DNA from: Bacteroidota bacterium
GTDB taxonomy: Bacteria > Bacteroidota > Bacteroidia > Chitinophagales > LD1
DNA length: 64,000 bases
Direction: 5' to 3'
NCBI GenBank assembly: GCA_947475165.1
Contig: CANJLD010000004.1
Coordinates: 9,791-73,790, forward strand
Numbering within the stretch: the first letter of the stretch is position 1; every line of letters starts with the position of its first letter. The notes beneath the pieces were generated by a model. The model worked only from the letters and a program-made list of their open reading frames with translations. It ran no database searches and was not told where the DNA came from. This document shows positions 18,802-49,961 of the stretch, piece by piece. The translations under genes and the position numbers were made by a program.

Positions 18802-18827
18802 AAAAAGCCCGGTTCAAAGAACCGAGC
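18802..18827 (-). terminator. rho-independent terminator of the adhesin gene
   Basis: On the minus strand: gctcggttc-ttt-gaaccgggc followed by tttttcatttt. It lies about 30 nt downstream of the stop at 18856. Confidence 0.55.
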
Positions 18828-18855
18828 TTGAAGAAGATAAAAGAGAGTAAAAAAA

Positions 18856-31722: not shown

Positions 31723-32241
31723 ATGAGCAAACCGCAGGTAGGAATTATAATGGGCAGCGAAAGCGATTTAAAAATAATGCAAGAATCAGCCGATGTGCTG
31801 AAAAATTTTGGAATTGAATTTGAATTGACTGTTGTAAGTGCGCATCGCACACCTGAAAGAATGATGGAATATGCGAGCACTGCAAGCGAAAGAGGATTGA
31901 AAGTAATTATAGCCGGTGCCGGTGGCGCTGCACACCTTCCAGGTATGGTAGCTGCTGTTACAACCTTGCCGGTTATTGGCGTTCCTATTAAATCATCTAA
32001 CTCTATTGATGGTTGGGATTCTGTTCTTTCTATTCTTCAAATGCCTTCGGGTGTGCCGGTGGCAACTGTTGCATTAAACGGAGCAAAGAATGCAGGAATA
32101 CTTGCCGCGCAAATAATCGGCTCATCTGATAAATCTATTTCTGAAAAGCTTGTTGCATTCAAAAAAGAGTTGAAACAAAAAGTAGAAACTTCTATCCGTG
32201 AAATAAAAATTGCAGGATTTAAGAATGAGTTTGATTCCTGA
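31723..32241 (+). CDS. purE: 5-(carboxyamino)imidazole ribonucleotide mutase
   Basis: 172 aa with [18 protein letters not shown] and [13 protein letters not shown] motifs. Confidence 0.9.
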
Positions 32242-32243
32242 AA

Positions 32244-32648
32244 TTACTTGATGGTAATTCCGTTCCCAGAACTGTTTATTTCTAATTGAGTAGTGTTTGC
32301 CTGTATGGAAACACAAGAAACAGTTTTCTCTCCGTTGAGTATGCACACCACTTCGTTTACGTGAACGTATAGAACGTTTTTACTCAACCCACCAGCGGTT
32401 CTTTTCTTCGCCAGGTTTTTTAGTTCATCTTTTGGTCCTGCAAAAATGACGATGGTTCCTTCAGAAAGATTTTTTAAAGTAACGGTTACTTCTTTGCCAA
32501 CAACCGGTGAAGGTTTCTTTGCAGTAGTTGTTGTTTTAGGTTTGGTTGTTGTTTTAGTTTTTTTCTTTACAGTTGTCTGCGCATACGAATTAGTGAATGC
32601 AAAACTTAGTAGCACAATGCTTAAAACTATTTTCAATAAAGGTTTCAT
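32244..32648 (-). CDS. hypothetical secreted protein with a Lys/Thr-rich linker
   Basis: 134 aa with a signal peptide (..SFAFTNSYAQ) followed by KKKTKTTTKPKTTTTAKKP. Confidence 0.6.
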   Translation of the reverse strand: MKPLLKIVLSIVLLSFAFTNSYAQTTVKKKTKTTTKPKTTTTAKKPSPVVGKEVTVTLKNLSEGTIVIFAGPKDELKNLAKKRTAGGLSKNVLYVHVNEVVCILNGEKTVSCVSIQANTTQLEINSSGNGITIK

Positions 32649-32657
32649 GCGGTGAAG

Positions 32658-33383
32658 TTACACTAACTTCATCAGGTCTTCTACTCCGGGAATTCGGTTC
32701 AATGTAAATGCCTCCGCATATTTTACTCCTATAGGAACGCCAAAGTGCATGGCGCGCGCTTTTACAAATTCTAAAAATTCGGGTGACGAAATGAAAGTTT
32801 CATCTTCGGTTGAATTGGGATTGAAAAATTGCGATTTGAAAGCAAGAATAGCTTGCTGTTTTCTATCGAAATATTTCGTTATGTCAACTACAAAATCCGG
32901 CTCGGCATGTATGGCTTGGATATAGTGATATAAAGCCTTTGGGCGAAACGCTTTTTGTTTTTCGCCTTTCAGTTTGGTTTCAATTTTAGAAAGACCGGAA
33001 AGAAAGCAGGCATCGTAAGTAAGTTGTGCGCTGCGTCCGTGGTCAGGATGCCGGTCGTATTTAGCATTGCTGATAACTACTGCGGGCTGGTATTTGCGGA
33101 TTATTTTAATGAGTTCGAGTTGGTGCGCTTTATCGTTCACAAAAAAACCGTCTTCAAAACCAAGATTCTCACGAACTTTAACGCCAAGAATTTTTGAGGA
33201 AGACTCCACTTCTTTCATTCGCAATTTTGCGGTGCCGCGCGTTCCCAATTCACCTTTGGTTAAATCGAGAATACCCACTTTGTATCCTGCGTCAATTTGT
33301 TTCATTAAAGTACCGGAACAGCCAAGTTCTACATCATCGGGGTGAACGCCTATGGCGAGTATGTCTAATTTCATATTATACAC
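32658..33383 (-). CDS. bshB1: PIG-L family deacetylase, bacillithiol biosynthesis deacetylase BshB1-like
   Basis: LDILAIGVHPDDVELGCSGT, DLTKGELGTRGT and YDRHPDHGRSAQL are closely colinear with Bacillus BshB1 as I remember it. Confidence 0.65.
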   Translation of the reverse strand: MYNMKLDILAIGVHPDDVELGCSGTLMKQIDAGYKVGILDLTKGELGTRGTAKLRMKEVESSSKILGVKVRENLGFEDGFFVNDKAHQLELIKIIRKYQPAVVISNAKYDRHPDHGRSAQLTYDACFLSGLSKIETKLKGEKQKAFRPKALYHYIQAIHAEPDFVVDITKYFDRKQQAILAFKSQFFNPNSTEDETFISSPEFLEFVKARAMHFGVPIGVKYAEAFTLNRIPGVEDLMKLV

Positions 33384-33828
33384 CGAACTGCTTTAGATGA
33401 TGGTTAAAATGTATTACAAGTAAATCTCTCCATTGCTTTTTGTCAAGTTTGCCAAATAGTGGATGTGGTTTTAGTTTTTCCTCTTCACGCTCATTAAATA
33501 CATCGAGCATCTTTTTCAGAAACTCCAATTCAGTATAAAAGTCGCGCGGTTTGCTGCCTTCTATCTTCTGATTTATTTCTACCGGTGCATTTGAATTCTT
33601 TGGAAAAAAACCTAATCCATAAACAACCAACGGAAATAAAATCTTATTCCAGAAAAAATTCGATTTGTCTTTTGCTTCTTTCATTCCCAGGCTAAGACGA
33701 AAAGCATCGTTCATATGCGTAAGCATTTGAGTTACGTTCATGCTCCCCCATTGTGACTTTGTATCTGGCGTAAGTTTATCTAAACGCTTCGTGAATTCAG
33801 AAATATTATGTTCAGAGAAATTGTTCAT
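33376..33828 (-). CDS. DUF1569 (DinB-superfamily-like) protein
   Basis: 150 aa with C-terminal HPLFGKLDKKQWRDLLVIHFNHHLKQFGV. Overlaps bshB1 by 8 nt. Confidence 0.55.
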   Translation of the reverse strand: MNNFSEHNISEFTKRLDKLTPDTKSQWGSMNVTQMLTHMNDAFRLSLGMKEAKDKSNFFWNKILFPLVVYGLGFFPKNSNAPVEINQKIEGSKPRDFYTELEFLKKMLDVFNEREEEKLKPHPLFGKLDKKQWRDLLVIHFNHHLKQFGV

Positions 33829-33837
33829 GAATATTTT

Positions 33838-34611
33838 CTAATGTGGTTGCTGCCCGTATTGTTGCTGTAAACGTTTCATCATTTCTTCGCGCTCCTTCGG
33901 ACTCATGTTTTTTAGCTTCTCCATCATTTCCTGCATACCTTCACCACCAGGCATTCCCGAAAAGCCGTTTCCTTTGGTGTAGCCGCTTAAACTAAAAAGG
34001 ACAGCTGGATTATTTCTTTTCTCTACTTTCACTAATTCCATCTGCATACCTTGACCACGCTCTTCAATTTTAATTCTAACAGTCATTCCATCGGCACCTT
34101 TGGCAGCAAGGGCTTTATACATGTTCTCTTTGCCGGTGTATTTAGATTTTACTTTCGAGAAATCAACATAACCTGCTATATCCTTAGTCGTCCATAATTC
34201 TTCGCGCTGCTTGCCGTTTATTTTTATGATGACATGTGTGGTATTATAGCCGTTCACGGTTTCTTTGCCAACCACGGTTATTTCATATTCTGCCTGCGCA
34301 CGGTCTTTCCACTCGTCATCGTTGCTGCTTTCAATTTCGCTGTATGTTTTATCCTTCTCGTTAAGTAAGTAAATTTTGCTCGGCTCGGCTTTAAGTGTAA
34401 GCGATGTAATTTTCATTTCTCCGCCCGGCATTTGCGGTACAGCCATATTTACTTCTGCACGGGTGTTTCCATCTTGTGAAAAGGATTTCATTGTTCCACT
34501 TCCGGCAGCTTCTTTTCCCGTAGAAGTTATTTTGAATTCCATATAAAAGCCCTGAGAGAATAGAGAGAGTGTGATGATTGCCAAAGCAATTGTGCTAAGT
34601 GCTCTTTTCAT
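33838..34611 (-). CDS. hypothetical secreted protein (possibly DUF4412-like)
   Basis: 257 aa with a signal peptide, a beta-rich body and a Met/Gln/Glu-rich tail (PGGEGMQEMMEKLKNMSPKEREEMMKRLQQQYGQQPH). Confidence 0.6.
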   Translation of the reverse strand: MKRALSTIALAIITLSLFSQGFYMEFKITSTGKEAAGSGTMKSFSQDGNTRAEVNMAVPQMPGGEMKITSLTLKAEPSKIYLLNEKDKTYSEIESSNDDEWKDRAQAEYEITVVGKETVNGYNTTHVIIKINGKQREELWTTKDIAGYVDFSKVKSKYTGKENMYKALAAKGADGMTVRIKIEERGQGMQMELVKVEKRNNPAVLFSLSGYTKGNGFSGMPGGEGMQEMMEKLKNMSPKEREEMMKRLQQQYGQQPH

Positions 34612-34664
34612 AACAACTATTTTTTGTTTTGTAAAAATAAAAGTATGAGTGAAACAAAGATGAA

Positions 34665-36653
34665 TTATTGCCCAATCAAACTTCTTAAATATTGCGCTTG
34701 GGTTTTATTGCCGGTCATTTCATAGGCAATACTCAGGTAGTAAATAGCGTTTGGATTTTCTTTGTTTAAAGATAAGCAGGTGTTCAACGCATTCATTCCT
34801 TTCTGCACGCGCGATGGATCTGTTTGTGCTGTTTGTAAATAAGCTAAGCCCAGGTTCATCAAGGCAAAATCATTCTTAGGGTATTTTGCGCAATACGGTT
34901 CCAGTAATCGAAGCGCAGTTTCAAAATCATTTTTCTTTATTGCTTCACTAGCCAGATAATCGCTCTTGTCATCTTTCCTTATCACACACGAAAGAGGAAC
35001 GCCATCGGCATAAACGGTATGCACACTTTGCTCGGGAGGGAAACATTGATTGCGCAACAATTCACAATCTACAAAGCGACAGTACATAATTTCATAGTCT
35101 GCATCCTTCTCGCTTCGTTGACGATAACTGGCGTAGCCAACCGGTGCCACTTTAGCTGAGTCAACTTTAAAATAAAAGCCCACCGGTCCTACCGCGTTGG
35201 TATATATAGTGGTTCTTCTTCCATCTGTGCGTTTTAAATTTTCATGTTCATGCATCCAGTCGGCACACTGCTTCACGCTGTTCATGTAGTAATCGGTTTC
35301 GTAATTGCTAAAAGCACCTTTAATGCCCCCAACTATTTCATTGAAATAAACGTACTCGTTAGGATGATTCGCAAACATAAAGCGCGCGGGAAGTGCAATA
35401 AAAACAAGCAACACCGCCACTGCGGCATACTTCATGTTCTTCTGTAGCAGATTAATGAAATAACTAAAAGCAAGACCGGTAAGAATGATAATACTAGGAT
35501 AAACAAAGAAGAAGTGGCGCATAGTATCATACAAAACAGACTTCTTGTATATGACATAACCCAAAGGAAATACAATAGTGAAATACAAAAAACCAAGCAG
35601 CAATAATTTGTTTTCTCTCTTCATAAAATTGAAAAGCCCGAACGATAAAACCAATCCGATTAATCCGAAAAGAGGAGTGGAGATAAGCAGCCACTTAGGG
35701 ATATAATGCCACGGCACTTCAGTAGATGAAATGTGTGCGCCTTCAAACAGAATTTTTATTTGTACCGGAAACTTCTGAGCTACATTCAAAGCTTCCATTG
35801 GATGACTGAACGGACTCACTAAGCCATACGGCCAGAATAGCAAACTGATAAAATATCCGAGTGCCGATGCGATCAAAACAAACTTAAAGCTCGGCCATAC
35901 ATTCTCTTTGAATTTTGAGAAGTTGAACAATTCGCCAAAGCCAAGCAAGCCCCACATAGCCAAACCATAAAACAAAAACAGGTATGGAATCAACAGCAAT
36001 CCACCGATACGGATACCCATAGCCATACCAATACTTAGTCCTAAACCAATCGCAGTATTAAGTGTCGGCTTGGGAAGTTGTTTCAAAAATTTAAGAATGA
36101 AAACATACGTAATCATATAACCCGCTGCCATGGTTATATCCTTCGGGTTGTTCATGCTCTCACCAAAAAAGCGCGGAGAGAATGCCATTAGTATGAGCGT
36201 AATTAAGCCGGCTTGCCAACCGGCTATCTCCACGGCAACAAGTGCCGCACAAAACATAGCAAACCATCCGAACATCGAATTCCATGCGTGACGGACATCC
36301 CATTCATTTACCGAGGGAAGTGCCTTGGAGAGGACTGCTGCTGTGCCGTCATAAAACCCACCGTAATAAACCATCAGTGAATCGGGACCAACATTCGAAG
36401 CCGCAGTTTTATCTTTTCCAAACGATGTATAGAAGTTCACTACATCATGCCCGTACATCCGGTGAAAATTCTCATCGCCCGAAATGCCGTATTGATGGCT
36501 GACAGAAACCATCAGGAGAAAAAGTGCAATAGCAAAACCGAAGAATAGTTTTTTTGAGAGTGCTTCGGAAAGAAGAGGAGTCAGATTGAATTCTTTTTTA
36601 GGTTCAACCTTCTTTTCGGCTTTTGGTTGAGGTTTGTTCTGCTGCTTTGCCAT
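34665..36653 (-). CDS. GT-C fold glycosyltransferase (PMT/ArnT-like, family 39/83-like) with C-terminal TPR domain
   Basis: 662 aa with about 11 TM helices, an acidic loop-1 motif (GISGDENFH, compare the DE motif of PMTs) and C-terminal TPR-like repeats (..ALMNLGLAYLQ.., NAIYYLSIAYEMTGNKTQA). Confidence 0.6.
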   Translation of the reverse strand: MAKQQNKPQPKAEKKVEPKKEFNLTPLLSEALSKKLFFGFAIALFLLMVSVSHQYGISGDENFHRMYGHDVVNFYTSFGKDKTAASNVGPDSLMVYYGGFYDGTAAVLSKALPSVNEWDVRHAWNSMFGWFAMFCAALVAVEIAGWQAGLITLILMAFSPRFFGESMNNPKDITMAAGYMITYVFILKFLKQLPKPTLNTAIGLGLSIGMAMGIRIGGLLLIPYLFLFYGLAMWGLLGFGELFNFSKFKENVWPSFKFVLIASALGYFISLLFWPYGLVSPFSHPMEALNVAQKFPVQIKILFEGAHISSTEVPWHYIPKWLLISTPLFGLIGLVLSFGLFNFMKRENKLLLLGFLYFTIVFPLGYVIYKKSVLYDTMRHFFFVYPSIIILTGLAFSYFINLLQKNMKYAAVAVLLVFIALPARFMFANHPNEYVYFNEIVGGIKGAFSNYETDYYMNSVKQCADWMHEHENLKRTDGRRTTIYTNAVGPVGFYFKVDSAKVAPVGYASYRQRSEKDADYEIMYCRFVDCELLRNQCFPPEQSVHTVYADGVPLSCVIRKDDKSDYLASEAIKKNDFETALRLLEPYCAKYPKNDFALMNLGLAYLQTAQTDPSRVQKGMNALNTCLSLNKENPNAIYYLSIAYEMTGNKTQAQYLRSLIGQ

Positions 36654-36680
36654 TCGGGAAATTTGAGCGGCAAAATAGAA

Positions 36681-37388
36681 TTATTTCATGGCAGAAATAA
36701 AAATGGACTGCGAAACGTTTTTCGCTAAAGGAATCTTTTCCAGCACATCGCCCAGAACAACAGACGGTGTAATTAACACATCGGGAACACCGGGCAGAAG
36801 AAAATCTTTGTATTCTACTTTAATGCTTTTGTAACCTGCCTTCGCCAGTTTTTCCGAAACAAATCTTTTTGAAAAGGCCATTTCATCAGGCTCCAGATGC
36901 GTTGCCTTGCGCAGCGCAGCATAAGAGAATATCAGATACACATACGGGTTGTAAATGTTCGGCTCGAGGAAAATCATTTTGCCGCCATCTTTCAATAAGT
37001 GAAGCATGTTGCCGAAGGCTTCATCCAGATGATAATACAAGTGATGCAGAATGCCGTTGCCGATAATGTAGTCGAACTTCTCTCCCTTAAACTGATCGGC
37101 TTTATTGAAATCAAGAATGTCGTAACGCAGATTGGTAAGGGGGAAATTCTTTTTTGCTTCTTCAATGAACGGAACACATAAGTCGGTTCCCAAAACCTGC
37201 ATGCCCGATTTCTTTGCCAGCATAAAAGCATTCTTACCGGTTCCGCAACCTATTTCCATTACTGATTTATCGGAACGCACTTCCATTTGCGAAATCATGT
37301 AATCGCATCTACGCTCAGCACGTATGTGGGTAGATTTGCTGTCGCCCCAAACCTGATTAAAACCTCTATCGTCTTTAATGTTTGCCAT
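36681..37388 (-). CDS. class I SAM-dependent methyltransferase
   Basis: 235 aa with motif I VMEIGCGTGKN. Confidence 0.75.
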   Translation of the reverse strand: MANIKDDRGFNQVWGDSKSTHIRAERRCDYMISQMEVRSDKSVMEIGCGTGKNAFMLAKKSGMQVLGTDLCVPFIEEAKKNFPLTNLRYDILDFNKADQFKGEKFDYIIGNGILHHLYYHLDEAFGNMLHLLKDGGKMIFLEPNIYNPYVYLIFSYAALRKATHLEPDEMAFSKRFVSEKLAKAGYKSIKVEYKDFLLPGVPDVLITPSVVLGDVLEKIPLAKNVSQSIFISAMK

Positions 37389-38129
37389 TTACTTTTTTAC
37401 TATGATGGTGTACCCCAGCGGGTCTTCATCGCTTCCGAGATTTAAAACTAAGGAAAGATGCGCTAGCAAAACTACAGTGATGAGAATAGGAGAAAGTGCC
37501 ATCCAAACCGGAACAAAAATCCATTTCCAAATTTGAGAAGGAAGAAGGTTCCTAAACCACAGCACAATTACCTTGTTTGCAATATTCGCAATGTCAGTTC
37601 CGCGGTTGGTAATTTTTGCAGATCTGAATTTGCTGAACATGGTTTTTAAAGTGCTAGGTGTATATCGGAAGAAATCGTAAGGAATGTAATGATACCTCAC
37701 GCTCCACGGAATAGTGATGATACCGGTGCCGCCTTTCTTCATTACGCGGTGCATTTCATCAATCAACTTCTGATAATTCTGAACATGCTCTAACACTTCG
37801 GTGCAAATCAATCCGTCAAACTTTTCGTTTTCAAACGGAATGTTCTCCCCATCAAAAGGAGTAATGTCAGAGTTGTCGTAATCGAACTTTTCTGCATCTA
37901 CTATATCCACTCCGAAGTATTTGGTTTCACCTGCGTTCAACAAAAACTTGTAAGGCGACTGTCCGCATCCAACATCCAGCACATTTCCTTTGAAGGATGG
38001 AATTGTCTTTACGATGTCGCGGTAAATGGTGAGTATCTGCAAATCCAAAAGCATTCGCCCGTAAAACTTTAGTTTACTGGAGAACGAGTTAGGGGGAGTA
38101 TTGCTATAGGGACGAAAACCTTCTGCCAT
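37389..38129 (-). CDS. class I SAM-dependent methyltransferase with C-terminal TM helices
   Basis: 246 aa with motif I VLDVGCGQSPY and a hydrophobic C-terminus (WIFVPVWMALSPILITVVLLAHL). Confidence 0.7.
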   Translation of the reverse strand: MAEGFRPYSNTPPNSFSSKLKFYGRMLLDLQILTIYRDIVKTIPSFKGNVLDVGCGQSPYKFLLNAGETKYFGVDIVDAEKFDYDNSDITPFDGENIPFENEKFDGLICTEVLEHVQNYQKLIDEMHRVMKKGGTGIITIPWSVRYHYIPYDFFRYTPSTLKTMFSKFRSAKITNRGTDIANIANKVIVLWFRNLLPSQIWKWIFVPVWMALSPILITVVLLAHLSLVLNLGSDEDPLGYTIIVKK

Positions 38130-40060
38130 TAGTAAACTTTACGGTAAATATTTCTTCTGATAAACTTCGGTCTGCGCTTGCTCTCTTCCAATATCTTACC
38201 CTGATACTCTCCAAGAACAGAAATGGCCAACATGTTCAATCCGCCAAAAAAGAGAATGAGAACAATGATGGTAGTAATGCCGTGAGGAACATTTCTGAAA
38301 ATAAAATAAGCTGCAACTTGAACGATGATGGCAATGAACGAAAGCAGAGTAAGCGACCAACCCAAATAAGTCATCAACTCCAATGGCACAAAACTGAAAC
38401 TGAAAATGGCTTTGCGTGCCCACGCAATATTCTTGCGCCAGTTGTTGGTAGTAACTCCAAACATTCTTTCGGGGCGGGTGTAATCAACACCGGTTTGCTT
38501 AAAGCCAACCCAAGCACGCAAGCCGCGCATAAACTGGTCGGTTTCGGGTAGCTTCACTAATTCATTCACCACTTTTCTATCCATCAAACTAAAGTCACCT
38601 GCATCGAGTGGAATCGGTACATAGCTTACACTACGGAATAAACGATAGAACATTTTATAAAACGAAACCAATGTTTGATTTCCTTCACGCGCTACTCTTC
38701 TGCCATATACCACATCAAATCCTTTCTGATATTCTGCGTAAAACTGCTCAATCAATTCAGGCGGGTCCTGTAAATCACCATCAAGCAGAATCACACCGTC
38801 ACCGGTAGATATTTCCATGCCCGAAAGAAAAGCCGCCTGCGAACCGAAGTTGCGGGAGTGCTCAATAGCAATAACATGGTCATCATCGTTCACTATCTTC
38901 TGTAAAACTTCGTTTGTGTTATCGGGTGAGCAATCGTTCACGAAAATTATTTCATAGTCGACTGCAATCTTCTGAAATGTTTTCGAGAGCCGCTCATACA
39001 TAAACGGAATTGCCTGTTCGTCTTTATAACAAGCAATAACGGCAGTAAGCTTATGGCGTATTTTATCCTGCACCAACTTCTTTTCATACAGCGGCATTGA
39101 GTACGCTTTCTGCCATTCTGCATTTTTACTCAAGCCTTCTTTAAGCGGAGTCTCGTTCTGCCAGCCAATTAATTCTTTTGCCAGCGAAGAATCGCCATAC
39201 CATTCTTTCAAATCCCATTTGCGGTTGGGCATATCACCCCAATCCGGATTCTTTTCTATACTGAAAATATCTTTGATAGCCGAAGCGATATCGCGAATGG
39301 TCGTTTTATGATTGCTGGCAATGTTCAGTGACTTGCCTCTAATGTTTTGAATATTGGTAGCGGAAAGCAATGTTGCAAGCACCGCATCATCTATGTAAAC
39401 AAAATCACGAGAGATATCGGGCTGCACCAAAGGAGGATACGTCCCCTTCATCCCTTTATCAATCAACTGCGGAATTAATCTATCCGGTTCTTCAAATGCC
39501 CCGTAGATACTATAGTAGCGCAGATTTGCTACCGGAACTTCTTTAATGGTTCCGTAGAATTTTATCATGTGCGCAGCACCAACTTTAGTTACTGCATAAT
39601 GCGAGTTAGGCTGAAGCGGTTCGTCTTCTTTTGGTGCCGATGCATTCAATCCGTATTCCGATGAACTGCCGGCATGAATAAAGGCTTTGATAGCAAACTG
39701 TGAAGAGATTTCCAACAGGTTGAGCAGACCAATAAAATTGGTTTCGTAAATCAAATCAACGTCCGACTGCTTACTGTAAGCACCGTAAGCAGCCAAATCG
39801 AAAATGGTTTTAAAGCGGTGCTCTTTGAAAATATCCTCAACCTGGTTTTTCTTAATGATGTTGCAGTGAAGAATGTGTTTTGGATTAATGTCATCCAGCC
39901 TCCACGGAATAAACGGCTTGCTGGTAACAGCAAAAACATCTTTGCGGTATTCCAGAATACTGCGAAGCAGGTTTGCACCGATAAAACCACCGGCACCAAA
40001 AATTACAATCGGGCCTTCCAGCTTAAGGACTTCTGCCTGTATTTTATAGGGTAAAGACAT
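38129..40060 (-). CDS. fusion protein: extended-SDR NAD-dependent epimerase/decarboxylase-like domain plus GT2 polyprenol-phosphate glycosyltransferase (ArnC/GtrB/DPM1-like) domain
   Basis: 643 aa. The N-terminal half has FGAGGFIGANL, SSSEYG and YAVTK (Y-x3-K). The C-terminal half has FVNDCSPDNT, DGDLQDPPE and two C-terminal TM helices. Confidence 0.75.
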   Translation of the reverse strand: MSLPYKIQAEVLKLEGPIVIFGAGGFIGANLLRSILEYRKDVFAVTSKPFIPWRLDDINPKHILHCNIIKKNQVEDIFKEHRFKTIFDLAAYGAYSKQSDVDLIYETNFIGLLNLLEISSQFAIKAFIHAGSSSEYGLNASAPKEDEPLQPNSHYAVTKVGAAHMIKFYGTIKEVPVANLRYYSIYGAFEEPDRLIPQLIDKGMKGTYPPLVQPDISRDFVYIDDAVLATLLSATNIQNIRGKSLNIASNHKTTIRDIASAIKDIFSIEKNPDWGDMPNRKWDLKEWYGDSSLAKELIGWQNETPLKEGLSKNAEWQKAYSMPLYEKKLVQDKIRHKLTAVIACYKDEQAIPFMYERLSKTFQKIAVDYEIIFVNDCSPDNTNEVLQKIVNDDDHVIAIEHSRNFGSQAAFLSGMEISTGDGVILLDGDLQDPPELIEQFYAEYQKGFDVVYGRRVAREGNQTLVSFYKMFYRLFRSVSYVPIPLDAGDFSLMDRKVVNELVKLPETDQFMRGLRAWVGFKQTGVDYTRPERMFGVTTNNWRKNIAWARKAIFSFSFVPLELMTYLGWSLTLLSFIAIIVQVAAYFIFRNVPHGITTIIVLILFFGGLNMLAISVLGEYQGKILEESKRRPKFIRRNIYRKVY

Positions 40061-40097
40061 GGTGTAAATATGCTGAAATTACGCAGACTCGGAAATC

Positions 40098-40994
40098 TTA
40101 GCCGAGAAAAGCGCTCAGCTCTTTCAGCATTCCTTCTCCGCCTAAATTGTTTTCCGCCTGGTGAAATTTCTGGTCTCCGTATTTGCCGCTCGGGTAACCG
40201 GAGGCAGCGAGTGAATGCATTTTGATATTCGAAGTCAACTGATTCATTAAATGATACGATAGCGTTTCGCGCAATCCGCACTCGCCGTTGTGTTCTTCTA
40301 TCGTAATTAATTTCTGTGTGGCGTTGATAGACGAAACCAATTCACTTGGCAGTTCAACAATCGGGAAGACACTTACAACCCAAACTTCTAAATCATCTGC
40401 AAATTCTGAATTCAGAATATTTTCTGTAACCGGTCCTGTACCTACTACTACTCCTTTAGTTCCATCTTTTATCTTTCTCCATTGCGCAAAGGGCGCCACC
40501 GGATGACTGATTTTCGCGCCCATGTTCAATCGCAGATAGTTCGGACTTTTATCGGCAATCATTTGCTCCACCGCCTGCTCTACATCGCTTACGGTAAAAG
40601 GAACATAAACCCGCATGTTTTGCAGAATGCGCATCGCGCCAATGTCTTCAATATTGTGGTGCGTGGCTCCCATAATGCCGTAGCCGTAGCCGCCACCGTT
40701 GCCCACAATCTTTACAGGCAAGTTATGCAGACAAACATCATTTCTAATTTGCTCGTACGGGCGAAGCGTTACAAAAGGAGAGATGCTGTATATCCACGGA
40801 ATAAAACCTTCGTGAGCCAGTGCCGCAGAAACAGTCACCATGTTTTGCTCGGCTACACCTGCGTTAATAAACTTCTCGCCAAACTTCTCCTGCACTTTCT
40901 CCAAAGCCATATAGCCCAGGTCTCCGGTTATAAAAACGAGGTTCTCGTTTTTATCGAAGGCGTTAATCATACTCTGTGCAAACTCAACTCTCAT
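40098..40994 (-). CDS. transketolase, C-terminal (pyrimidine-binding) subunit
   Basis: 298 aa with FINAGVAEQNMVTVSAALA and GATHHNIEDIGAMR. Its start overlaps the N-terminal subunit gene (ATGA). Confidence 0.8.
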   Translation of the reverse strand: MRVEFAQSMINAFDKNENLVFITGDLGYMALEKVQEKFGEKFINAGVAEQNMVTVSAALAHEGFIPWIYSISPFVTLRPYEQIRNDVCLHNLPVKIVGNGGGYGYGIMGATHHNIEDIGAMRILQNMRVYVPFTVSDVEQAVEQMIADKSPNYLRLNMGAKISHPVAPFAQWRKIKDGTKGVVVGTGPVTENILNSEFADDLEVWVVSVFPIVELPSELVSSINATQKLITIEEHNGECGLRETLSYHLMNQLTSNIKMHSLAASGYPSGKYGDQKFHQAENNLGGEGMLKELSAFLG

Positions 40995-41812
40995 CCTATG
41001 GCTGTAAGTCTTTTTTCAAAATCGTTTTTCACTTCTTCTGTAATCAAACTGTATTGGTCATCCTTCATCGGTAAGTAATGACAGTCAACTTTATCTTCAT
41101 AAGTTTTCCAGCCATGTCCTTTAGTTGTGTTGCATATAATTGCTGTAGGAACTTTTAGCTTTTCACTTTCCACTTTTGCCTTCTCTAACGCTTCAAAATC
41201 ATGTCCGTCAGCAATCAAAACATTAAACCCAAACGCCTCCAGCTTCTTATCCAACGGTTCCAACCCCATCACATCCTCTGTTCTTCCGTAACCCTGTAAT
41301 TTATTGCGGTCAATCAACCACACCACATTGTTCAGCTTATGATGCGCAATAAACAACGCTGCTTCCCAGGTACTGCCTTCATTAATTTCTCCATCGCTGG
41401 TTATACAGAAAACCTTCTTGTCTTTCTTCTTCAGCTTTTGTGCAAGTCCTAATCCTGCCGCAAGCGACAGCCCGTGCCCGAGGCTACCGGTAGCAAAAGG
41501 AATGCGCTTAATTTTATTCACCGGTGGATGTGCCGCGAGGTGTGTTCCGTTCTTATAAAAAGTTTTGATATCCTCTTCGCTCAACGTGCCGTCTTCGGCA
41601 AGCATCGAGTAAAGCGCGGCCGCTGCATGGCCCTTGCTTAAAATAATTTCATCGTCCTCCTTCATCCAGCCAAAACGCACAAAGGTCAGCATCTCCGCCA
41701 CGCTCAGCGAGCAGCCTACATGACCGGCATTCGCCTGTTTATACATGCCCAGAAAACGGTTCTTGATGTTCAGCGCCCCAAAAAGGAGCATTCTATGTGT
41801 GGCTTTATCCAT
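40991..41812 (-). CDS. transketolase, N-terminal (thiamine-diphosphate-binding) subunit
   Basis: 273 aa with GHVGCSLS, LSKGHAAAALY, GSLGHGLS and TSDGEINEGSTWEA. Confidence 0.8.
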   Translation of the reverse strand: MDKATHRMLLFGALNIKNRFLGMYKQANAGHVGCSLSVAEMLTFVRFGWMKEDDEIILSKGHAAAALYSMLAEDGTLSEEDIKTFYKNGTHLAAHPPVNKIKRIPFATGSLGHGLSLAAGLGLAQKLKKKDKKVFCITSDGEINEGSTWEAALFIAHHKLNNVVWLIDRNKLQGYGRTEDVMGLEPLDKKLEAFGFNVLIADGHDFEALEKAKVESEKLKVPTAIICNTTKGHGWKTYEDKVDCHYLPMKDDQYSLITEEVKNDFEKRLTAIG

Positions 41813-41824
41813 CGGCGCGCAATA

Positions 41825-42334
41825 TTAAATTATTTCCCCGCGCTTGCCCAACTCCACCACCTCCAGGTTCTCAATCTTCTTATCGTTCAGCGTAAACCGC
41901 AGCACCGTCTTCATTTTATGGAAACCATGCACACCCGCAGCACCGGGGTTCATCACCACCATGTTGTTGTATTTCGCATCGCGCATCACCTTCAAAATGT
42001 GCGAGTGCCCGCAGATAAAAATATCGGGCATCACCTCCTCAATCTGCCTGCGCGCCTTGGGCTCGTAGTTGTTGGGGTAGCCGCCAATATGCGTCATCAA
42101 TATTTTAAAACCCTCGCGCTCCAACACCAGGTTCAGCTGATAATCCATGCGGATATCCTTGTTGTCAATGTTACCATAAACGGCAAAAAAGGGTTTGAAA
42201 TTTTTCAGCTCATCGCACAGCTCAATGGTTCCCAAATCACCGGCATGCCATATTTCGTCAACGTCTTTAAACACCTCGAAAACTTTTTTGTCGAGGTAGC
42301 TGTGGGTGTCGCTGATGAGGCCGATTTTTATCAT
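41825..42334 (-). CDS. metallophosphoesterase (YfcE/MJ0936 family)
   Basis: MIKIGLISDTHSY, WHAGDLG, GNID and CGHSH motifs. The start is trimmed from the track ORF (42415) to the Met preceding the DxH motif. Confidence 0.75.
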   Translation of the reverse strand: MIKIGLISDTHSYLDKKVFEVFKDVDEIWHAGDLGTIELCDELKNFKPFFAVYGNIDNKDIRMDYQLNLVLEREGFKILMTHIGGYPNNYEPKARRQIEEVMPDIFICGHSHILKVMRDAKYNNMVVMNPGAAGVHGFHKMKTVLRFTLNDKKIENLEVVELGKRGEII

Positions 42335-42442
42335 AAGGGACGAATTTAAGAAACCAAGATTTCCAAGTATAATTTTATAAATAGGTATAAAATCTAAATT
42401 CGCTGTTGTATTCAATCCAAAACCACATTTCTAAAATCTAAA

Positions 42443-44251
42443 ATGTCTATGGCAGTAAAATCAAATCTTACCGGTGGAGCTTTTTTATTTAAAGACACCA
42501 ACACTGCCGATGTTTTTATTCCCGAAGAATTCACCGAAGAGCAGCACATGGTGCACGCTACGGTAAAAAATTTTATGATTAAGGAAGTGCATGGGCTGGG
42601 TATTGGCAGAGTGGCGAGTCTTGATGCAGAAAAAGATAAAGACTTGGTGTTGGAGATATTCCATAAAGCTTCTGCACTCGGTTTCAGTGGAGTATCGGTA
42701 GAAGAGAAATACGGTGGCGGAGGTTTGGATTTTAATACCGCTCTTTATTTTACCGAAGGCTTAGCCGGTGGCTTTTCTTTTGCCACTACTATCGGTTGTC
42801 AAACTTCAATCGGCTCATTACCCATTGCCTGGTATGGCACCGAAGAACAAAAAGCAAAATACCTACCGGGCATTGCCAGCGGAGAAAAAGGATGTTCGTA
42901 TTGTTTGACAGAACCGAGTGCCGGATCTGATGCTAACAGTGGAAAGACTCGTGCTGTATTAAATGAAGAAGGCACACATTACATTTTGAACGGACAAAAA
43001 ATGTGGATTACCAACGGTGGCTTTGCCGAAATATTTACGGTGTTCGCTAAAATTGATAACGATGAAAAGCTTTCAGCATTCATTGTAGAAAAAGCATTTG
43101 GAGGAATATCGCTAGGGAAAGAAGAAAAGAAGATGGGGATTAAAGCATCGAGCACAGTGCAGGTGTTCTTCAACAATGTAAAAATTCCGAAAGAGAATTT
43201 GTTAGGCGAGCGCGGAAAGGGCTTTAATATGGCGTTGAACATTTTGAACAGCGGAAGAATAAAAATTGCAGCTGGTGGGGTAGGAGGAATGAAGTTTGGT
43301 TTAGATAGAACTGTAGATTATTGCAATACAAGAATTCAGTTCAATAAACCTATTGCCGATTTTGGAGCAATGAAACAGAAGCTCGGAGTTATTGCTACTA
43401 ATATTTTTGCCATTGAATCTGGAGTTTACCGCGTAGGTGCCGATGTAGATAAAAAGCGCGAAGAACTTTTAAAGAGCGGCAGCAGCGGAAATGATTCGGA
43501 AATAAACTCGATGCGCGAATACGCTATTGAATGTGCTGTATTAAAAGTATTAGGCAGCGAAGCCATGTGCAACACCGGTGATGAAGCCATTCAGATTTTC
43601 GGAGGAATGGGTTACAGTATGGAGACCGGTGTGGAGATGGCTTACCGCGATGCACGTATCACAAAAATTTACGAAGGTACGAACGAGATTAACCGGATGC
43701 TTACACTGGCTGAGTTTTATAAACGCGCTTTTGTTACTAAGGAGTTGGAATTAAAAGACGCAAAATCGTTTGTTCCTTCGGTTGTTTTCAAAAACTATGT
43801 TCCGTTCACCGGTAGTGGTTTTTTAGGAACTGAGTTCGAATTCGTGAACAACCTGAAAAGCATCTTCCTGATTATTACCGGTGCGGCAGGTGCCAAGCTG
43901 AAAGAGAAATTGGTTGACGAACAGGAGATAGTAATGAACCTGGCAGATATTCTTTCTATGGCTTTTGTTACCGAGTCGGCTTTTCTGCGCGTAAAAAAGT
44001 TGAGCGAGAAAGGGATCAACAAAACCGAACTCGACATTAAAACCAAAATGGCGCAGTTGTATTTATACGATGCGTTAGACACAGCACGCAAGTCAGCCAA
44101 CAATGCAATTGATAGTTACGCGAAAGGCGCAGAGAAGGCTCTCTTAAAATCTTTAATGCGCAGAATGTTGAGGACTTATAACATCAACCCGAAAGATGTA
44201 AGAAGAGAAGTGGCTGATTTTATGATTAAGCAGAACGGGTATTATTTCTGA
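42443..44251 (+). CDS. acyl-CoA dehydrogenase family protein (long form with C-terminal helical extension)
   Basis: 602 aa with CLTEPSAGSDA, QIFGGMGY and ARITKIYEGTNEI. Confidence 0.85.
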   Translation: MSMAVKSNLTGGAFLFKDTNTADVFIPEEFTEEQHMVHATVKNFMIKEVHGLGIGRVASLDAEKDKDLVLEIFHKASALGFSGVSVEEKYGGGGLDFNTALYFTEGLAGGFSFATTIGCQTSIGSLPIAWYGTEEQKAKYLPGIASGEKGCSYCLTEPSAGSDANSGKTRAVLNEEGTHYILNGQKMWITNGGFAEIFTVFAKIDNDEKLSAFIVEKAFGGISLGKEEKKMGIKASSTVQVFFNNVKIPKENLLGERGKGFNMALNILNSGRIKIAAGGVGGMKFGLDRTVDYCNTRIQFNKPIADFGAMKQKLGVIATNIFAIESGVYRVGADVDKKREELLKSGSSGNDSEINSMREYAIECAVLKVLGSEAMCNTGDEAIQIFGGMGYSMETGVEMAYRDARITKIYEGTNEINRMLTLAEFYKRAFVTKELELKDAKSFVPSVVFKNYVPFTGSGFLGTEFEFVNNLKSIFLIITGAAGAKLKEKLVDEQEIVMNLADILSMAFVTESAFLRVKKLSEKGINKTELDIKTKMAQLYLYDALDTARKSANNAIDSYAKGAEKALLKSLMRRMLRTYNINPKDVRREVADFMIKQNGYYF

Positions 44252-44661: not shown

Positions 44662-44839
44662 AGTGGGAATATTATTCTGCTAAGGTAATTTTTAAAACGC
44701 TGTTTGTTTAATATCAGTGAGTTACGCATCATTCTTCGTTCTTCATTATCATTTCGCATTTAAAATTGAATTGATTGCGCCTATGCTGTGGTGCATGTTT
44801 GCATCATCAAATCATTGTTCATCACTTAAAACAAACAAC

Positions 44840-46213
44840 ATGAAAACTATTGCAAAAATTTCAAATGCAGTTCTGGCTCTTGTAGCATTAGTAACAGTTA
44901 GCAGTTGCCATTTAGATGGTAACGAGTTAAACCGTATTTGCAACGAGCCAACCGTTGGCGTAAACACCACCGAACAGGGAGACGATGTAGACGGACTTTG
45001 CGATGGGACAATTTCCTGCACTATCCGCAAAGCCATCTATACCGCCAATCACTCCTGTGTTACTAAAACTATTGTGCTGGGTACCGGTGTTAAGTATACC
45101 ATAACAACACACGAAACCGGTCACGATGCAGCTTCATCTGAAGCAACTGTTGGCCTTATGGCATTTCCTCCTATTACTGGAGATGTGATTATAGAAGGTA
45201 ACGGAGCAATTATTGAGCGTGATACCGCGGCTACTGATTTATTCCGTCTGTTCTATGTAAAAGCCGGTGGTAAACTCACCTTGCGCAACGTAACTATACA
45301 AGGTGGTAGAGCCGGAGAGTTTGGCGCCTCAACCACAAATGAAGAAGCACGCGGAGGTGCTTTATTGAACGAAGGTGAACTGGTTTTAGAGAATGCTTCC
45401 TTCTCTTATAATAAGGCATGGGATGAAGGAGGGGCAGTATACAATAAAGGAACGCTGATAACGGCTAGCTCTGCTTTTAAGTATAACCATGCAAATGGAA
45501 CGGGAGGAACCAATAGTTCATCTGGCGGAGCTATCTTTTCAAACGGTGCAGCCACTTTAAATAGCACCTGGTTTTTTGAAAACAACGGAGGTGGCAGAGA
45601 AGGAGGCGCACTTGCATTTGAAAGTTCTTTTGTAGTAAATAACTGCCTGTTTGAAAGGAACACCAGTTCATCGGGAGGCTTTGCGGTATATTCAAATTCG
45701 TCATTTTCTTCTGCTTCAGGCAGTATAACCAACTGCACTTTCTATCAGAACTATAGTTCAGGTCAGGATAATGGTGTAATAGCAATGACCGGCGCGGGCA
45801 CTTTAAACATTGCTTTTTGCACCTTTAGTCATAACTTAAATGGGGGACAGTTTGGCAATTGTCTGTATCTTACTACCCCTTCAATTGCTAACGTTAGCAA
45901 CTGTATTTTCGATGCCAACCTGCCTCATAATATATTTCCGGAACCGGTAATTACTTTTTCCGGCACTACTATTTCAAACGATAATTCAGTCACTACAATC
46001 AGCCATCCAAGCACTAATCCGATGTTAGGACCGCTTGAAATGCACAGTGGTTTTACCAAAACAATGGTGCCGCTTACCGGTAGCCCGGCAATTGATGCCG
46101 TTGCAGATTGCGGAACAACTACTACCGACCAACGCGGAAATACGCGTCCCTTAGACGGAAATGGAGACGGTATTTCGAGAGGCGATGCAGGAGCGGTTGA
46201 AGTAAATCCATAA
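44840..46213 (+). CDS. lipoprotein with parallel beta-helix / polymorphic-membrane-protein-like repeats and choice-of-anchor Q-like C-terminus
   Basis: Lipoprotein signal MKTIAKISNAVLALVALVTVSSC, repeated GGA[LVI]...N motifs, and C-terminal TDQRGNTRPLDGNGDGISRGDAGAVE. The start is trimmed from 44717. Confidence 0.65.
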   Translation: MKTIAKISNAVLALVALVTVSSCHLDGNELNRICNEPTVGVNTTEQGDDVDGLCDGTISCTIRKAIYTANHSCVTKTIVLGTGVKYTITTHETGHDAASSEATVGLMAFPPITGDVIIEGNGAIIERDTAATDLFRLFYVKAGGKLTLRNVTIQGGRAGEFGASTTNEEARGGALLNEGELVLENASFSYNKAWDEGGAVYNKGTLITASSAFKYNHANGTGGTNSSSGGAIFSNGAATLNSTWFFENNGGGREGGALAFESSFVVNNCLFERNTSSSGGFAVYSNSSFSSASGSITNCTFYQNYSSGQDNGVIAMTGAGTLNIAFCTFSHNLNGGQFGNCLYLTTPSIANVSNCIFDANLPHNIFPEPVITFSGTTISNDNSVTTISHPSTNPMLGPLEMHSGFTKTMVPLTGSPAIDAVADCGTTTTDQRGNTRPLDGNGDGISRGDAGAVEVNP

Positions 46214-46265: not shown

Positions 46266-46303
46266 GAAAGGCGAATGAAGGAATCATTCGCCTTTCTTTT
46301 TTT
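46266..46303 (+). terminator. rho-independent terminator whose 3' arm contains the stop codon of the convergent gene
   Basis: gaaaggcgaatga-aggaa-tcattcgcctttc followed by ttttttt. The last codons of the minus-strand ORF 46284..47813 (..KKKGE*) lie inside the 3' arm and T-run. Confidence 0.6.
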
Positions 46304-47813
46304 GTGCGGCTGCAAACACATGTATTTTTTGGTTCGCCAGTTTGGCATCTAAAAAACTCTGCACTATAGGAAGCAAAGCCAAATGTTGACGGTTTGAAGC
46401 ATTGCCACCGGAAGCATCCAATTCTTCTTTCAATTTTTGAATTTCTTTTTTATGCTGAGAGTAGTCCTGCATTTCAGAAATCTTTTTGAAAACATGCATG
46501 AGCGTACTTTCAAATTCGCCTTTGTATTGGTTGCGCAAAAAATAGCGGTAAACATTCTGAATAGTATTGTTCACGTAAAGCATATTACCCATTTCAAGGT
46601 GGCAGATAAACTCATACACATACAACATCAGCAGCGCATCCATCCGTATTCCTGAATCGTAATTGGTCAAAAAATCTTCGCTCACGTCAATAGCGGTTTC
46701 GTATTCGCCATACTCAACAAAGGCCGAGATTGTTGTAATGGTAATTGCCAAGCGCACATCGGGGCGTAACCGGTTTTTGAATTGTTTCAGATGCGAAACC
46801 GTTTCGTGCAAAAGTTCTTTCAGTTGTTTTTCATTGCGCTTAAAATCGAAAAGTGTAATGGCGAGTTGGGTGTAATAAGTGAACTGCGCCATTGTTTCTG
46901 TATGATTGTTTACCGCGATTACTTTCAGTTCGTTCAGATACTTTTCAAGTTCTTTCCATTGTTGCGTGTAGTAACACGCCTGCGTTAATTGAGAATAAGC
47001 CCAAAGCACGCGCATCATCGGAAATTTTTCGATGCCTTCCTTTTTTAAGTATTCAGTCAACGTTTTAGCTTCTGCAAAAAAATCTTTCCAGTTATTGAAG
47101 ATTTGAAAGTGATGTAGACGAATTGTGTGAAAGATAAAACACGAGTCTCTGCTGTCAGCAAGTTTTTTCTGCTGAACAATTTTCTGATTGAAAATTTCGT
47201 TCAGTGCTTTTAAATCTTCATCGCTACGCGCCTGCATGGCTTTGCGCATTACACGTAATTGTTGAACAAGCAATGCATCGTATTCGTGGTAGCGTTGCAT
47301 TTGTGCCAGCAAAACTCCGCGTTGCTCTACCCAGTTGTTCAATTCGCTGAACTCATTTTTCTTATCTGATAGAAACTGGTTTGAGGCATAGTGAATGTTT
47401 CTGCTTAAGGCATTCCATTTTTCAATAAATGAACCTTCGTTGGAAGTATTCTTTGCTAAACGCACGGAAAGTTTAAGTGCCTCTTCGTCTAAGCCTCTGT
47501 CTTCAAGCAAACTTATTTTGGCAGATTCATAAGATGTATCAAAGCCCTTAATTCTTTCTTTGTTGTACCACAACAGCGTATCAAGTAGTAATTCGTAGAG
47601 GTATGTTTTGAGATGCGAAATCTGCTTATCAAGTTTCACACGTTTCAGGCGGTTGATGATTTTTTCTTCGTCAAATTCATCCAGCGCATCTATTATTTCA
47701 AAAAGCGTTTCAGTATTACTCTTCCCTTTCGACTCATCTTTTAACCCGAAACGCCTGAAGTATTTCTTCTCGTTGGCGTCTAAACTCTTAATTAAATGAT
47801 AGAGTTCCTGCAT
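46284..47813 (-). CDS. hypothetical all-alpha protein (509 aa), conserved-looking Bacteroidota N-terminus
   Basis: N-terminus MQELYHLIKSLDANEKKYFRRFG...ETLFEIIDALDEFDEEKI...LKTYLYELLLDTLLWY. No signal peptide and no catalytic motif. Confidence 0.7.
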   Translation of the reverse strand: MQELYHLIKSLDANEKKYFRRFGLKDESKGKSNTETLFEIIDALDEFDEEKIINRLKRVKLDKQISHLKTYLYELLLDTLLWYNKERIKGFDTSYESAKISLLEDRGLDEEALKLSVRLAKNTSNEGSFIEKWNALSRNIHYASNQFLSDKKNEFSELNNWVEQRGVLLAQMQRYHEYDALLVQQLRVMRKAMQARSDEDLKALNEIFNQKIVQQKKLADSRDSCFIFHTIRLHHFQIFNNWKDFFAEAKTLTEYLKKEGIEKFPMMRVLWAYSQLTQACYYTQQWKELEKYLNELKVIAVNNHTETMAQFTYYTQLAITLFDFKRNEKQLKELLHETVSHLKQFKNRLRPDVRLAITITTISAFVEYGEYETAIDVSEDFLTNYDSGIRMDALLMLYVYEFICHLEMGNMLYVNNTIQNVYRYFLRNQYKGEFESTLMHVFKKISEMQDYSQHKKEIQKLKEELDASGGNASNRQHLALLPIVQSFLDAKLANQKIHVFAAAQKKKGE

Positions 47814-49922: not shown

Positions 49923-49961
49923 ACGATTTACTTTCTTTTAAATTCGACAAAACCCAAAGAC

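Follow-up and report, generated by a model that had tools for sequence, protein, structure and literature searches.

A 64,000-nucleotide stretch of a Bacteroidota bacterium genome (GenBank assembly GCA_947475165.1, contig CANJLD010000004.1, positions 9,791 to 73,790 of the forward strand; hereafter the window) carries seven closely packed open reading frames (ORFs) on its minus strand at 34665-42334, among them a transketolase encoded by two genes and a gene that fuses a short-chain dehydrogenase/reductase (SDR) to a family 2 glycosyltransferase (GT2). An ORF check and a re-reading of all junctions returned the coordinates and the tight layout described in a first-pass annotation of this DNA. 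The stop of the metallophosphoesterase gene (MPE) lies 12 nt from the start of the gene for the thiamine diphosphate (ThDP)-binding transketolase subunit (TK-N), which shares an ATGA overlap at 40991-40994 with the gene for the second subunit (TK-C). A further 37 nt lead to the SDR-GT2 fusion gene, which overlaps a first methyltransferase gene (MT-A) by TAATG at 38129. MT-A meets a second methyltransferase gene (MT-B) at TAAATG, and 27 nt separate MT-B from the gene for a predicted membrane glycosyltransferase of the GT-C fold (Table 1). Our analysis suggests that the core of this run encodes a lipid-carrier glycan modification pathway with a dedicated, non-canonical transketolase.

Table 1 Features of the window discussed in the text, with positions counted from its first nucleotide
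Feature	Position	Strand	Size	Place in the module
MPE, YfcE-family metallophosphoesterase	41825-42334	-	169 aa from ATG	
TK-N, putative ThDP-binding (PP-domain) subunit of non-canonical split transketolase	40991-41812	-	273 aa	core
TK-C, putative pyrimidine-binding and C-terminal-domain subunit with altered acceptor site	40098-40994	-	298 aa	core
SDR-GT2 fusion	38129-40060	-	643 aa	core
MT-A, class-I S-adenosylmethionine (SAM) methyltransferase with C-terminal hydrophobic membrane anchor	37389-38129	-	246 aa	frequent accessory
MT-B, soluble class-I SAM methyltransferase	36681-37388	-	235 aa	core
Predicted GT-C-fold membrane glycosyltransferase with periplasmic domain and C-terminal tetratricopeptide repeat (TPR) tail	34665-36653	-	662 aa	lineage-specific
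Genes after the GT-C gene: DUF4412; DUF1569 (DinB-like); BshB1; small Thr/Lys-rich secreted protein	32244-34611	-		
TonB-dependent receptor, then HTTM (vitamin-K-dependent gamma-carboxylase-like) protein with lumenal domain, imelysin, DUF4856 protein	5673-11516	-		
Type IX secretion cargo: PNGase-F-like protein with Por_Secre_tail; 1100-aa SprB-repeat protein with CHU_C; two more Por_Secre_tail proteins	16509-22158; 48519-51443	-; +		
ORFs without Pfam match at E<=1e-5	28881-30359; 44717-46213; 46284-47813	-; +; -	~490-510 aa	

The window is the part of this genome that was inspected, and relatives were used to delimit the module. By its homologs, the organism belongs to the Chitinophagales. 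A scan with the fusion protein, taking one genome per species, yielded 80 loci, 66 of which had enough flanking sequence for synteny to be assessed by tblastn and ORF clustering. The transketolase pair adjoins the fusion in at least 53 of these 66 loci, with three more recognized by tblastn only, and the module extends over three orders, Chitinophagales, Cytophagales and Bacteroidales. Carriers include metagenome-assembled genomes (MAGs) of Ferruginibacter, Puia, Niastella, Terrimonas and Edaphocola among the Chitinophagales, Bacteroidales and Lentimicrobiaceae MAGs, and the cultured Cytophagales Rudanella paleaurantiibacter HX-22-17 and Arsenicibacter rosenii SM-1. The order TK-N, TK-C, fusion, (MT-A), MT-B persists while identity of the fusion falls from 97% to 55%; in the Cytophagales, including the cultured strains, it reads PMT_2-type GT-C, TK-N, fusion, TK-C. 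Overall, the linkage of transketolase and fusion holds from above 90% down to 33% TK-C identity, through such rearrangements and in two distant loci described below. Because the order TK-N, TK-C, fusion, methyltransferase recurs in dozens of species, the arrangement goes beyond chance.

The conserved unit consists of four to five genes, namely TK-N, TK-C, the fusion and MT-B, with or without MT-A, and not of the seven that had been grouped at first. An MT-B ortholog was found in 54 loci and MT-A in 35 (about half). Orthologs of the window's GT-C protein are adjacent in only about 25 loci; elsewhere other large polytopic membrane proteins, most of them without a Pfam match, fill its position. 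The MPE gene precedes TK-N in 25 loci, all in the closest clade, and is missing from every more distant version of the cluster. Its identity as a YfcE-type phosphoesterase stands (PF12850, 112.5 bits; TIGR00040, 75.8 bits, above the cutoff of 56.25; alternative start TTG at 42415). Since its adjacency is confined to the closest clade, MPE is probably a bystander and its membership in the pathway is doubtful.

The domains of TK-N and TK-C agree with their initial reading as the N and C subunits of a split transketolase: TK-N matches Transketolase_N (PF00456, 109 bits), and TK-C carries Transket_pyr (PF02779, 92.5 bits) and Transketolase_C. The nearest characterized relative of both is the split transketolase of Carboxydothermus hydrogenoformans (TK-N, 164 bits to the N chain, 6YAK; TK-C, 97 bits to 6YAJ). 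TK-N also scores 129 bits against human transketolase and at most 33 bits against 1-deoxy-D-xylulose 5-phosphate synthase (DXS). For TK-C, DXS models give 84 bits and transketolase models 86 bits, with DXS structures at 50-54 bits. Against the transketolase equivalog NF004559, TK-N reaches 208 bits and TK-C 86 bits; the cutoff of 488 is set for the full-length protein, and the sum of the two subunits, 294 bits, still lies under it.

Compared with canonical transketolases, the pair retains the cofactor and donor sites and departs from them in the acceptor/phosphate site, as it does in the equivalog score. The equivalents of H26, H66, H100, D155, N185 and H261 of Escherichia coli transketolase (EcTK) are kept across 58 TK-N orthologs, 60 TK-C orthologs retain both the H473 equivalent and the cofactor Glu, and the motifs SDGE, DRN and AEQN, for ThDP and metal binding and cofactor activation, are conserved. 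The donor-site histidines (H26, H66, H100, H261 and H473; residue list in part from PMC7661550) are at least 90% conserved in these 58 and 60 sequences. On the acceptor side, 60 of 60 TK-C orthologs carry GNGGGYGYGIMGATHH where canonical enzymes have ATHAGLTVGEDGASHQ, so that H461 has become Gly and D469 Met in every one; Met also occupies the R520 position in about 70%, and the canonical DLSKST loop reads GDLGY. An Arg at position 2 of TK-C, equivalent to R358, is about 90% conserved. EcTK numbering was transferred to TK-C through the alignment with the C. hydrogenoformans enzyme, H461 and D469 being placed with the EcTK motif HDSIGLGEDGPTHQ. Two further positions separate the pair from DXS: TK-N keeps His at EcTK H100 (AAHP), where DXS consistently carries Phe (PMC7661550), and Met stands in TK-C at the position of the Asp of the DXS ADG motif.

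We then searched 1.84 billion cluster representatives exhaustively with HMMER, and 613 proteins matched at E<=1e-30. Of the best 150 representatives, 130 are full-length, and all of these, down to 32% identity, show the altered motif, mostly in the form G-x-G-x-G-[YF]-x-Y-G...[ST]-H-H. By these sequence features, the enzyme belongs to a large and distinct subfamily of non-canonical split transketolases with an apparently rebuilt acceptor site. The matches listed for the fusion (at least 78% identical) and for TK-C (at least 72%) were close relatives throughout, and the distant gene contexts therefore come from this search of representatives. Seven distant members were sampled, and each of them is surrounded by sugar or glycan genes; most adjoin genes for nucleotidyltransferases, dehydratases, FdtA, DegT, GT2 or Wzx. 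Their neighbors comprise GT2, Bac_transf and aldo-keto reductase genes beside TK-N and TK-C (locus L084); Wzx, nucleotidyltransferase, dehydratase, two DegT, GT2 and methyltransferase genes (L086); GT2, nucleotidyltransferase, epimerase, FdtA and DegT genes (L087); GT2 and DUF2304 genes (L088); and a dTDP-sugar isomerase gene only, beside the transketolase pair (L090). In the remaining two, L089 and L091, where TK-C is 33-34% identical to that of the window, an SDR-GT2 fusion again adjoins TK-N and TK-C. The L089 fusion is 46% identical to ours and is accompanied by an MT-B ortholog (42% identity), and that of L091 (44% identity) by a methyltransferase, a GtrA-family flippase (PF04138) and a 681-aa protein with eight predicted transmembrane (TM) segments.

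The fusion is the most conserved gene of the cluster, with 120 database clusters at 78-100% identity among the matches listed. It consists of an extended SDR at about residues 15-320 (PF01370, 132 bits) and a GtrB-type GT2 at about residues 331-640 (PF00535, 96 bits). The GT2 half aligns end to end with Synechocystis GtrB (5EKP; 222 bits, residues 331-639), including both TM helices, which are predicted near residues 562 and 586, and it thus combines a GT-A domain bearing the DxD motif, here DGDLQD, with two C-terminal TM helices. Scores are about 105 bits against ArnC structures and 131 bits against the ArnC equivalog NF007986, where the cutoff is 529; the best NCBIfam match is NF047588 (PgfS), with 243 bits and a cutoff of 500. 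As judged from this alignment, the GT2 half is a full-length GtrB-type polyprenyl-phosphate glycosyltransferase. The SDR half is closest to a UDP-glucose 4-epimerase (4ZRM, 95 bits), followed by the UDP-glucuronate 4-epimerases MoeE5 and BcUGAepi. In the alignment with UDP-hexuronate 4-epimerases, SSSEYG of this half falls on SSSVYG, which places its Glu at the Val position. Given where the catalytic Glu of the UXS/ArnA motif (T-S-E in ArnA) presumably lies, this residue is therefore not the catalytic Glu of those decarboxylases. Of the initial description, the fusion itself, the GtrB-type GT2 with its two TM helices and the epimerase character of the SDR hold, whereas a decarboxylase-type SDR is not supported.

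For the GT-C protein, a sequence search of the PDB returned no match, and a fold comparison was therefore needed. An AlphaFold2 model built on 43 homologs (pLDDT 88.2, pTM 0.86) matched STT3, ArnT, AglB, PglB, ALG12, Pmt4 and AftA in Foldseek, at probability 1.0 and TM-scores of 0.36-0.57. The pair D60-E61 in the first extracytoplasmic loop, which presents the acidic DE motif of the PMT/GT39-TMTC clan, is invariant in the 43 homologs down to 36% identity. PMT_2 scores 19.8 bits on the window protein against a gathering score of 26.1, and many homologs are annotated PF13231 or PF02366. The C-terminal tail is made of TPRs, as indicated by weak Pfam hits and by the model. With this confident model, its fold matches and the invariant acidic pair, the initial call of a GT-C protein with a TPR tail is upheld, and the last gene is predicted to encode a GT-C-fold membrane glycosyltransferase acting as the final transferase. 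At about 40% identity, relatives of the GT-C protein either form one chain with a GT2 or stand beside GT2 and methyltransferase genes, without transketolase or SDR genes. The pairing of GT2 and GT-C is thus a general theme, of which the combination of transketolase, SDR-GT2 fusion and methyltransferase is a specific and conserved elaboration.

Two other arrangements were seen among GT-C relatives. Single chains of 864-950 aa (P0083-P0117; also L002:10001-12733) join GT2 to GT-C/TPR, uniting donor synthase and transferase in one polypeptide, and are usually followed by a methyltransferase gene. In L003:1-12109, a GT-C relative lies downstream of genes for ACP, SDR, AMP-ligase, LuxE, LuxC, acetyltransferase, GFO_IDH, DegT, GT2 and methyltransferase, a set whose apparent product is an acylated amino sugar, to be delivered by a GT-C protein of this type. 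The methyltransferases beside these distant relatives (L002 and L003) were considered as orthologs of MT-A and MT-B and rejected, sharing the generic class-I fold only (E about 1e-3).

MT-A and MT-B are both class-I SAM methyltransferases, as first annotated, matching Methyltransf_11/23/31 and Methyltransf_12/25/31/11, respectively. The TM helices ascribed to one of them amount to a single C-terminal hydrophobic segment, starting at about residue 202 of MT-A. No specific relative of MT-A was found in the PDB or NCBIfam, and MT-B has generic relatives only in the PDB. An assignment of substrate class through these databases was given up, as the matches were generic, the best being a phosphoethanolamine N-methyltransferase at 50 bits.

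Other genes accompany the module in particular lineages. Cytophagales clusters (L070:18485-19876; also L066, L068, L072-L074 and L077) contain a eukaryote-type UDP-galactopyranose mutase, scoring 469 bits to the Aspergillus fumigatus and 467 bits to the Trypanosoma cruzi enzyme, which suggests a galactofuranose-containing glycan; the same clusters hold acyltransferase_3 and GT2 genes and two unannotated polytopic membrane proteins. Small ORFs inserted between the cluster genes of relatives (L005-L083, for example L007, L012 and L006) were considered as GtrA flippases and rejected, as they are TonB_C-like, four-helix-bundle proteins of the 23S-rRNA-IVS type, or PIN/DUF5615-like.

Around the module, the co-directional run continues past 34665 with four more genes down to 32244, the successive spacings being 53 nt, 9 nt, an overlap and 9 nt. 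One of them encodes the bacillithiol deacetylase BshB1 (TIGR04001, 288 bits, above its cutoff). In the tblastn comparison, these four genes were syntenic with the cluster in none of the related loci; DUF4412, DUF1569 and BshB1 were accordingly excluded as members of the system because all related loci lack them. On the other side, the upstream neighbor is a divergent acyl-CoA dehydrogenase-like gene. A sigma-70 promoter and terminator scan of 32000-43000, which does not cover Bacteroidota promoters, gave 22 promoter-like sites with 21.8 expected. The rest of the 64 kb is ordinary chromosome, with gyrB-like, yidC, purK and ppk genes, TonB receptors and cargo of the type IX secretion system, and holds no second transketolase or other glycan gene. 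The secretion cargo could be candidate glycoprotein substrates, and no link between it and the cluster was found. The window also contains a group of genes beginning with a TonB-dependent receptor and three long ORFs devoid of Pfam matches (Table 1).

Our combined findings favor a lipid-carrier glycan modification of the Gtr, Arn or Pgf type with a dedicated non-canonical transketolase, to which we assign a probability of about 0.6-0.7. The polyprenol-linked glycan modification proposed in the first-pass annotation is thereby supported through the GtrB-type GT2, the GT-C fold and the conserved linkage of transketolase and fusion, with the core trimmed to four to five genes. A lack of synteny in relatives, which that annotation had named among the outcomes speaking against its proposal, is not what the related loci show. 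The chemistry and the order of its steps, like the sugar, the ketol donor, the acceptor and the flippase, are what we infer from these genes. In the cytoplasm, the SDR domain would oxidize a common nucleotide sugar, or the lipid-linked product of its own GT2, to a keto or aldehyde sugar. The split transketolase would then add a two-carbon dihydroxyethyl (glycolaldehyde) unit to the carbonyl, giving a C2-branched or chain-extended sugar; a dihydroxyethyl unit, and not the acetyl-type unit of DXS, would be expected because the transketolase-type His100 is retained. The SDR might re-reduce this product, and one or two SAM methyltransferases, including the membrane-anchored MT-A, could methylate the sugar. 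The GtrB-type domain would load it on undecaprenyl phosphate, a flippase would turn it across the membrane, and the GT-C protein would transfer it to a periplasmic acceptor, which may be a protein, as the TPR tail hints by analogy. For the specific addition of two carbons by the transketolase pair, our confidence is tentative and falls somewhat short of an even chance. An extended version, in which oxidation and carbon-carbon bond formation by the transketolase take place on the lipid-linked sugar, and MT-A finishes a C2-branched or eight-carbon methylated sugar destined for surface proteins or glycans of Bacteroidota, seems unlikely to us, though the SDR-GT2 fusion and the membrane anchor of MT-A are compatible with it.

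Several observations weigh against this pathway. The SDR is nearest to 4-epimerases, and such enzymes normally release no keto intermediate. The window contains no flippase gene, with no GtrA-family ORF in 32244-42415, and co-transcription of the cluster genes is deduced from their spacing alone. In the closest published proposal for such chemistry, that of the miharamycin and amipurimycin clusters, transketolase activity is unproven in vitro (PMC12247030). Eight loci, from three or four small lineages, carry the fusion with no transketolase within 10 kb. Linkage of the two is therefore not obligatory, and the fusion may function alone. These loci are nested among transketolase-linked lineages and lie amid housekeeping genes, a pattern suggesting secondary dispersal or loss. 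In one such lineage, bacA/uppP, for undecaprenyl-diphosphate phosphatase, is found two genes downstream of the fusion (L031:8879-9793).

The epimerase-like SDR also opens an alternative in which it simply acts as a 4-epimerase feeding its own GT2, as in PgfE/PgfS or Rv3634c/PpgS, while the transketolase pair makes or remodels a free sugar phosphate or ketose before nucleotide activation and would leave the nucleotide- or lipid-linked sugar untouched. The best structural relatives of the SDR, UDP-hexose and UDP-hexuronate 4-epimerases, are those that this alternative would predict, and the conserved R358-equivalent Arg may still bind an anionic substrate group. Nevertheless, the core module lacks a kinase, mutase or nucleotidyltransferase that could activate a new sugar, all TK-C orthologs have lost H461 and D469 and most have lost R520 as well, and the distant subfamily members stand amid enzymes of nucleoside diphosphate (NDP)-keto-sugars (FdtA, DegT, dehydratases), so that we regard it as improbable. 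Cleavage of a two-carbon ketol from a longer or branched sugar before lipid loading, in the manner hypothesized for the steroid desmolase DesAB (see below), would make use of the intact donor-side histidines and of the reversibility of transketolase chemistry. It would, however, require an acceptor aldehyde for turnover and a heptose, octose or branched precursor that no gene of the module supplies, and we consider it quite improbable.

Some bacteria and archaea use split transketolases for housekeeping (PMC7661550), and inspection covered 64 kb of this genome; an ordinary pentose-phosphate enzyme could have come to lie beside a Gtr-like glucosylation system by chance or co-regulation. The first-pass annotation had raised this caveat itself. 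It is weakened by the altered acceptor residues, which recur in all 60 TK-C orthologs (H461 and D469) or in most (R520), by equivalog scores well below the cutoff for both subunits, and by the occurrence of this non-canonical subfamily in sugar and glycan clusters. A housekeeping role in the pentose phosphate pathway is therefore unlikely on sequence grounds, and since the linkage to the fusion also survives divergence to 33% TK-C identity and the reordering to TK-N, fusion, TK-C in Cytophagales, we place this explanation at very low odds. The similar scores of TK-C against DXS and transketolase models raise the further idea of a divergent DXS-like enzyme making isoprenoid precursor for the polyprenyl carrier. 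This was rejected on active-site residues, namely the His at the H100 position and the Met in place of the ADG Asp, and the preference of TK-N for transketolases (6YAK and human) over DXS makes it the most improbable explanation that we considered.

The preferred reading, a dedicated transketolase serving a lipid-carrier pathway, would have consequences beyond this locus. Among periplasmic decorations from polyprenyl-phosphate sugars, those with plain glucose, aminoarabinose, GalNAc and pentofuranoses are well understood, and none of these systems includes a step that forms a carbon-carbon bond. The module described here ties a thiamine-dependent enzyme to a carrier-loading enzyme in many Bacteroidota, and the split-transketolase subfamily, with its 613 representatives, recurs in polysaccharide clusters of unrelated bacteria, whereas published proposals of sugar-branching transketolases concern only a few Streptomyces antibiotic clusters. 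If the reading is true, it would establish a new class of sugar-tailoring enzyme, bring to light a new bacterial sugar and put right a widespread "transketolase" label through which pentose-phosphate-pathway calls are inflated in MAGs. As the cultured strains R. paleaurantiibacter HX-22-17 and A. rosenii SM-1 carry the module, these predictions are directly testable. Our literature search turned up neither a transketolase coupled to a GtrB, GT-C or polyprenyl system nor this SDR-GtrB fusion, in line with the initial remark that the combination was not known to be characterized.

Among known systems, the module resembles Gtr (GtrA/GtrB/GtrC), in which a GtrB-type GT2 makes the polyprenyl-phosphate sugar in the cytoplasm and a GT-C protein uses it outside. 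It differs in the absence of GtrA from the window, in the fusion of the GT2 to an SDR, in the inclusion of a split transketolase and methyltransferases in the unit, and in the TPR tail of the GT-C protein; a GtrA-family gene is present at L091. With Arn (ArnA-ArnB-ArnC-ArnT) it shares the sequence of a nucleotide sugar modified by an SDR, loading by a GT2 and transfer by a GT-C protein, ArnT being among the best fold matches, but it lacks the formyltransferase domain, the ArnB aminotransferase and ArnD, and its SDR lacks the ArnA/UXS Glu. Thus, of the Arn and Gtr logic invoked at first, the overall route, the GtrB-type GT2 and the GT-C protein carry over, whereas an ArnC equivalog, an ArnA-type SDR and a GtrA in the window do not. 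The Pgf system of Streptococcus mutans (PgfS, PgfE, PgfM1/M2) and the mycobacterial PpgS/Rv3634c/Rv3779 system, which act on proteins or wall glycans, likewise combine an epimerase-type SDR, a GtrB-like synthase and a polytopic transferase. Here, SDR and GT2 form one polypeptide, and the PgfS equivalog cutoff is missed. We know of no transketolase or methyltransferases in the Pgf and PpgS systems.

For the transferase step, TMTC O-mannosyltransferases and TfpW of Pseudomonas aeruginosa offer a parallel, being GT-C proteins with C-terminal TPRs that glycosylate proteins from polyprenyl-phosphate sugars, though the window protein has no detectable sequence similarity to them beyond the fold and the sub-threshold PMT_2 match. 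The pentofuranose systems (Citrobacter youngae O1/O2, GT136) provide a precedent for an SDR that acts on a sugar linked to undecaprenyl phosphate before a GT-C protein adds it in the periplasm: a GalE-like SDR turns undecaprenyl-phosphate-ribofuranose into its xylo epimer on the carrier lipid (PMC11127046). They load the carrier by a phosphoribosyl pyrophosphate-dependent phosphoribosyltransferase and have neither a GtrB-type GT2 nor a ThDP enzyme.

For the transketolase step, there are parallels in other gene clusters. In those for miharamycin and amipurimycin, a split-gene transketolase has been proposed to extend a keto sugar, the product of a neighboring oxidoreductase, by a hydroxyacetyl branch, and 13 further candidates for such sugar branching are all from Streptomycetes (PMC12247030). 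A two-gene transketolase beside a sugar oxidoreductase is also what we observe here, with TK-N and TK-C immediately preceding the SDR-GT2 fusion, and distant subfamily members adjoin SDR, aldo-keto reductase, FdtA and DegT genes, as would be expected of transketolases that branch sugars at carbon. The comparison, made by description, is between Streptomyces secondary metabolism and a Bacteroidota module for a lipid-carrier surface glycan. The steroid-17,20-desmolase genes desAB, annotated as N- and C-terminal transketolase subunits, are hypothesized to act by transketolation in removing the two-carbon ketol side chain from cortisol (PMC5408610). There too a non-phosphorylated two-carbon ketol on a ring carbon would be handled, in the formal reverse of the branching proposed here, but in catabolic cleavage of a steroid with no glycan context, again compared by description. 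Finally, an Actinoplanes exopolysaccharide cluster groups methyltransferase, split transketolase and DegT genes (PMC13390465). Seen against these systems, the gene content of the module describes a familiar framework to which a conserved, uncharacterized and putatively thiamine-dependent tailoring step has been added.

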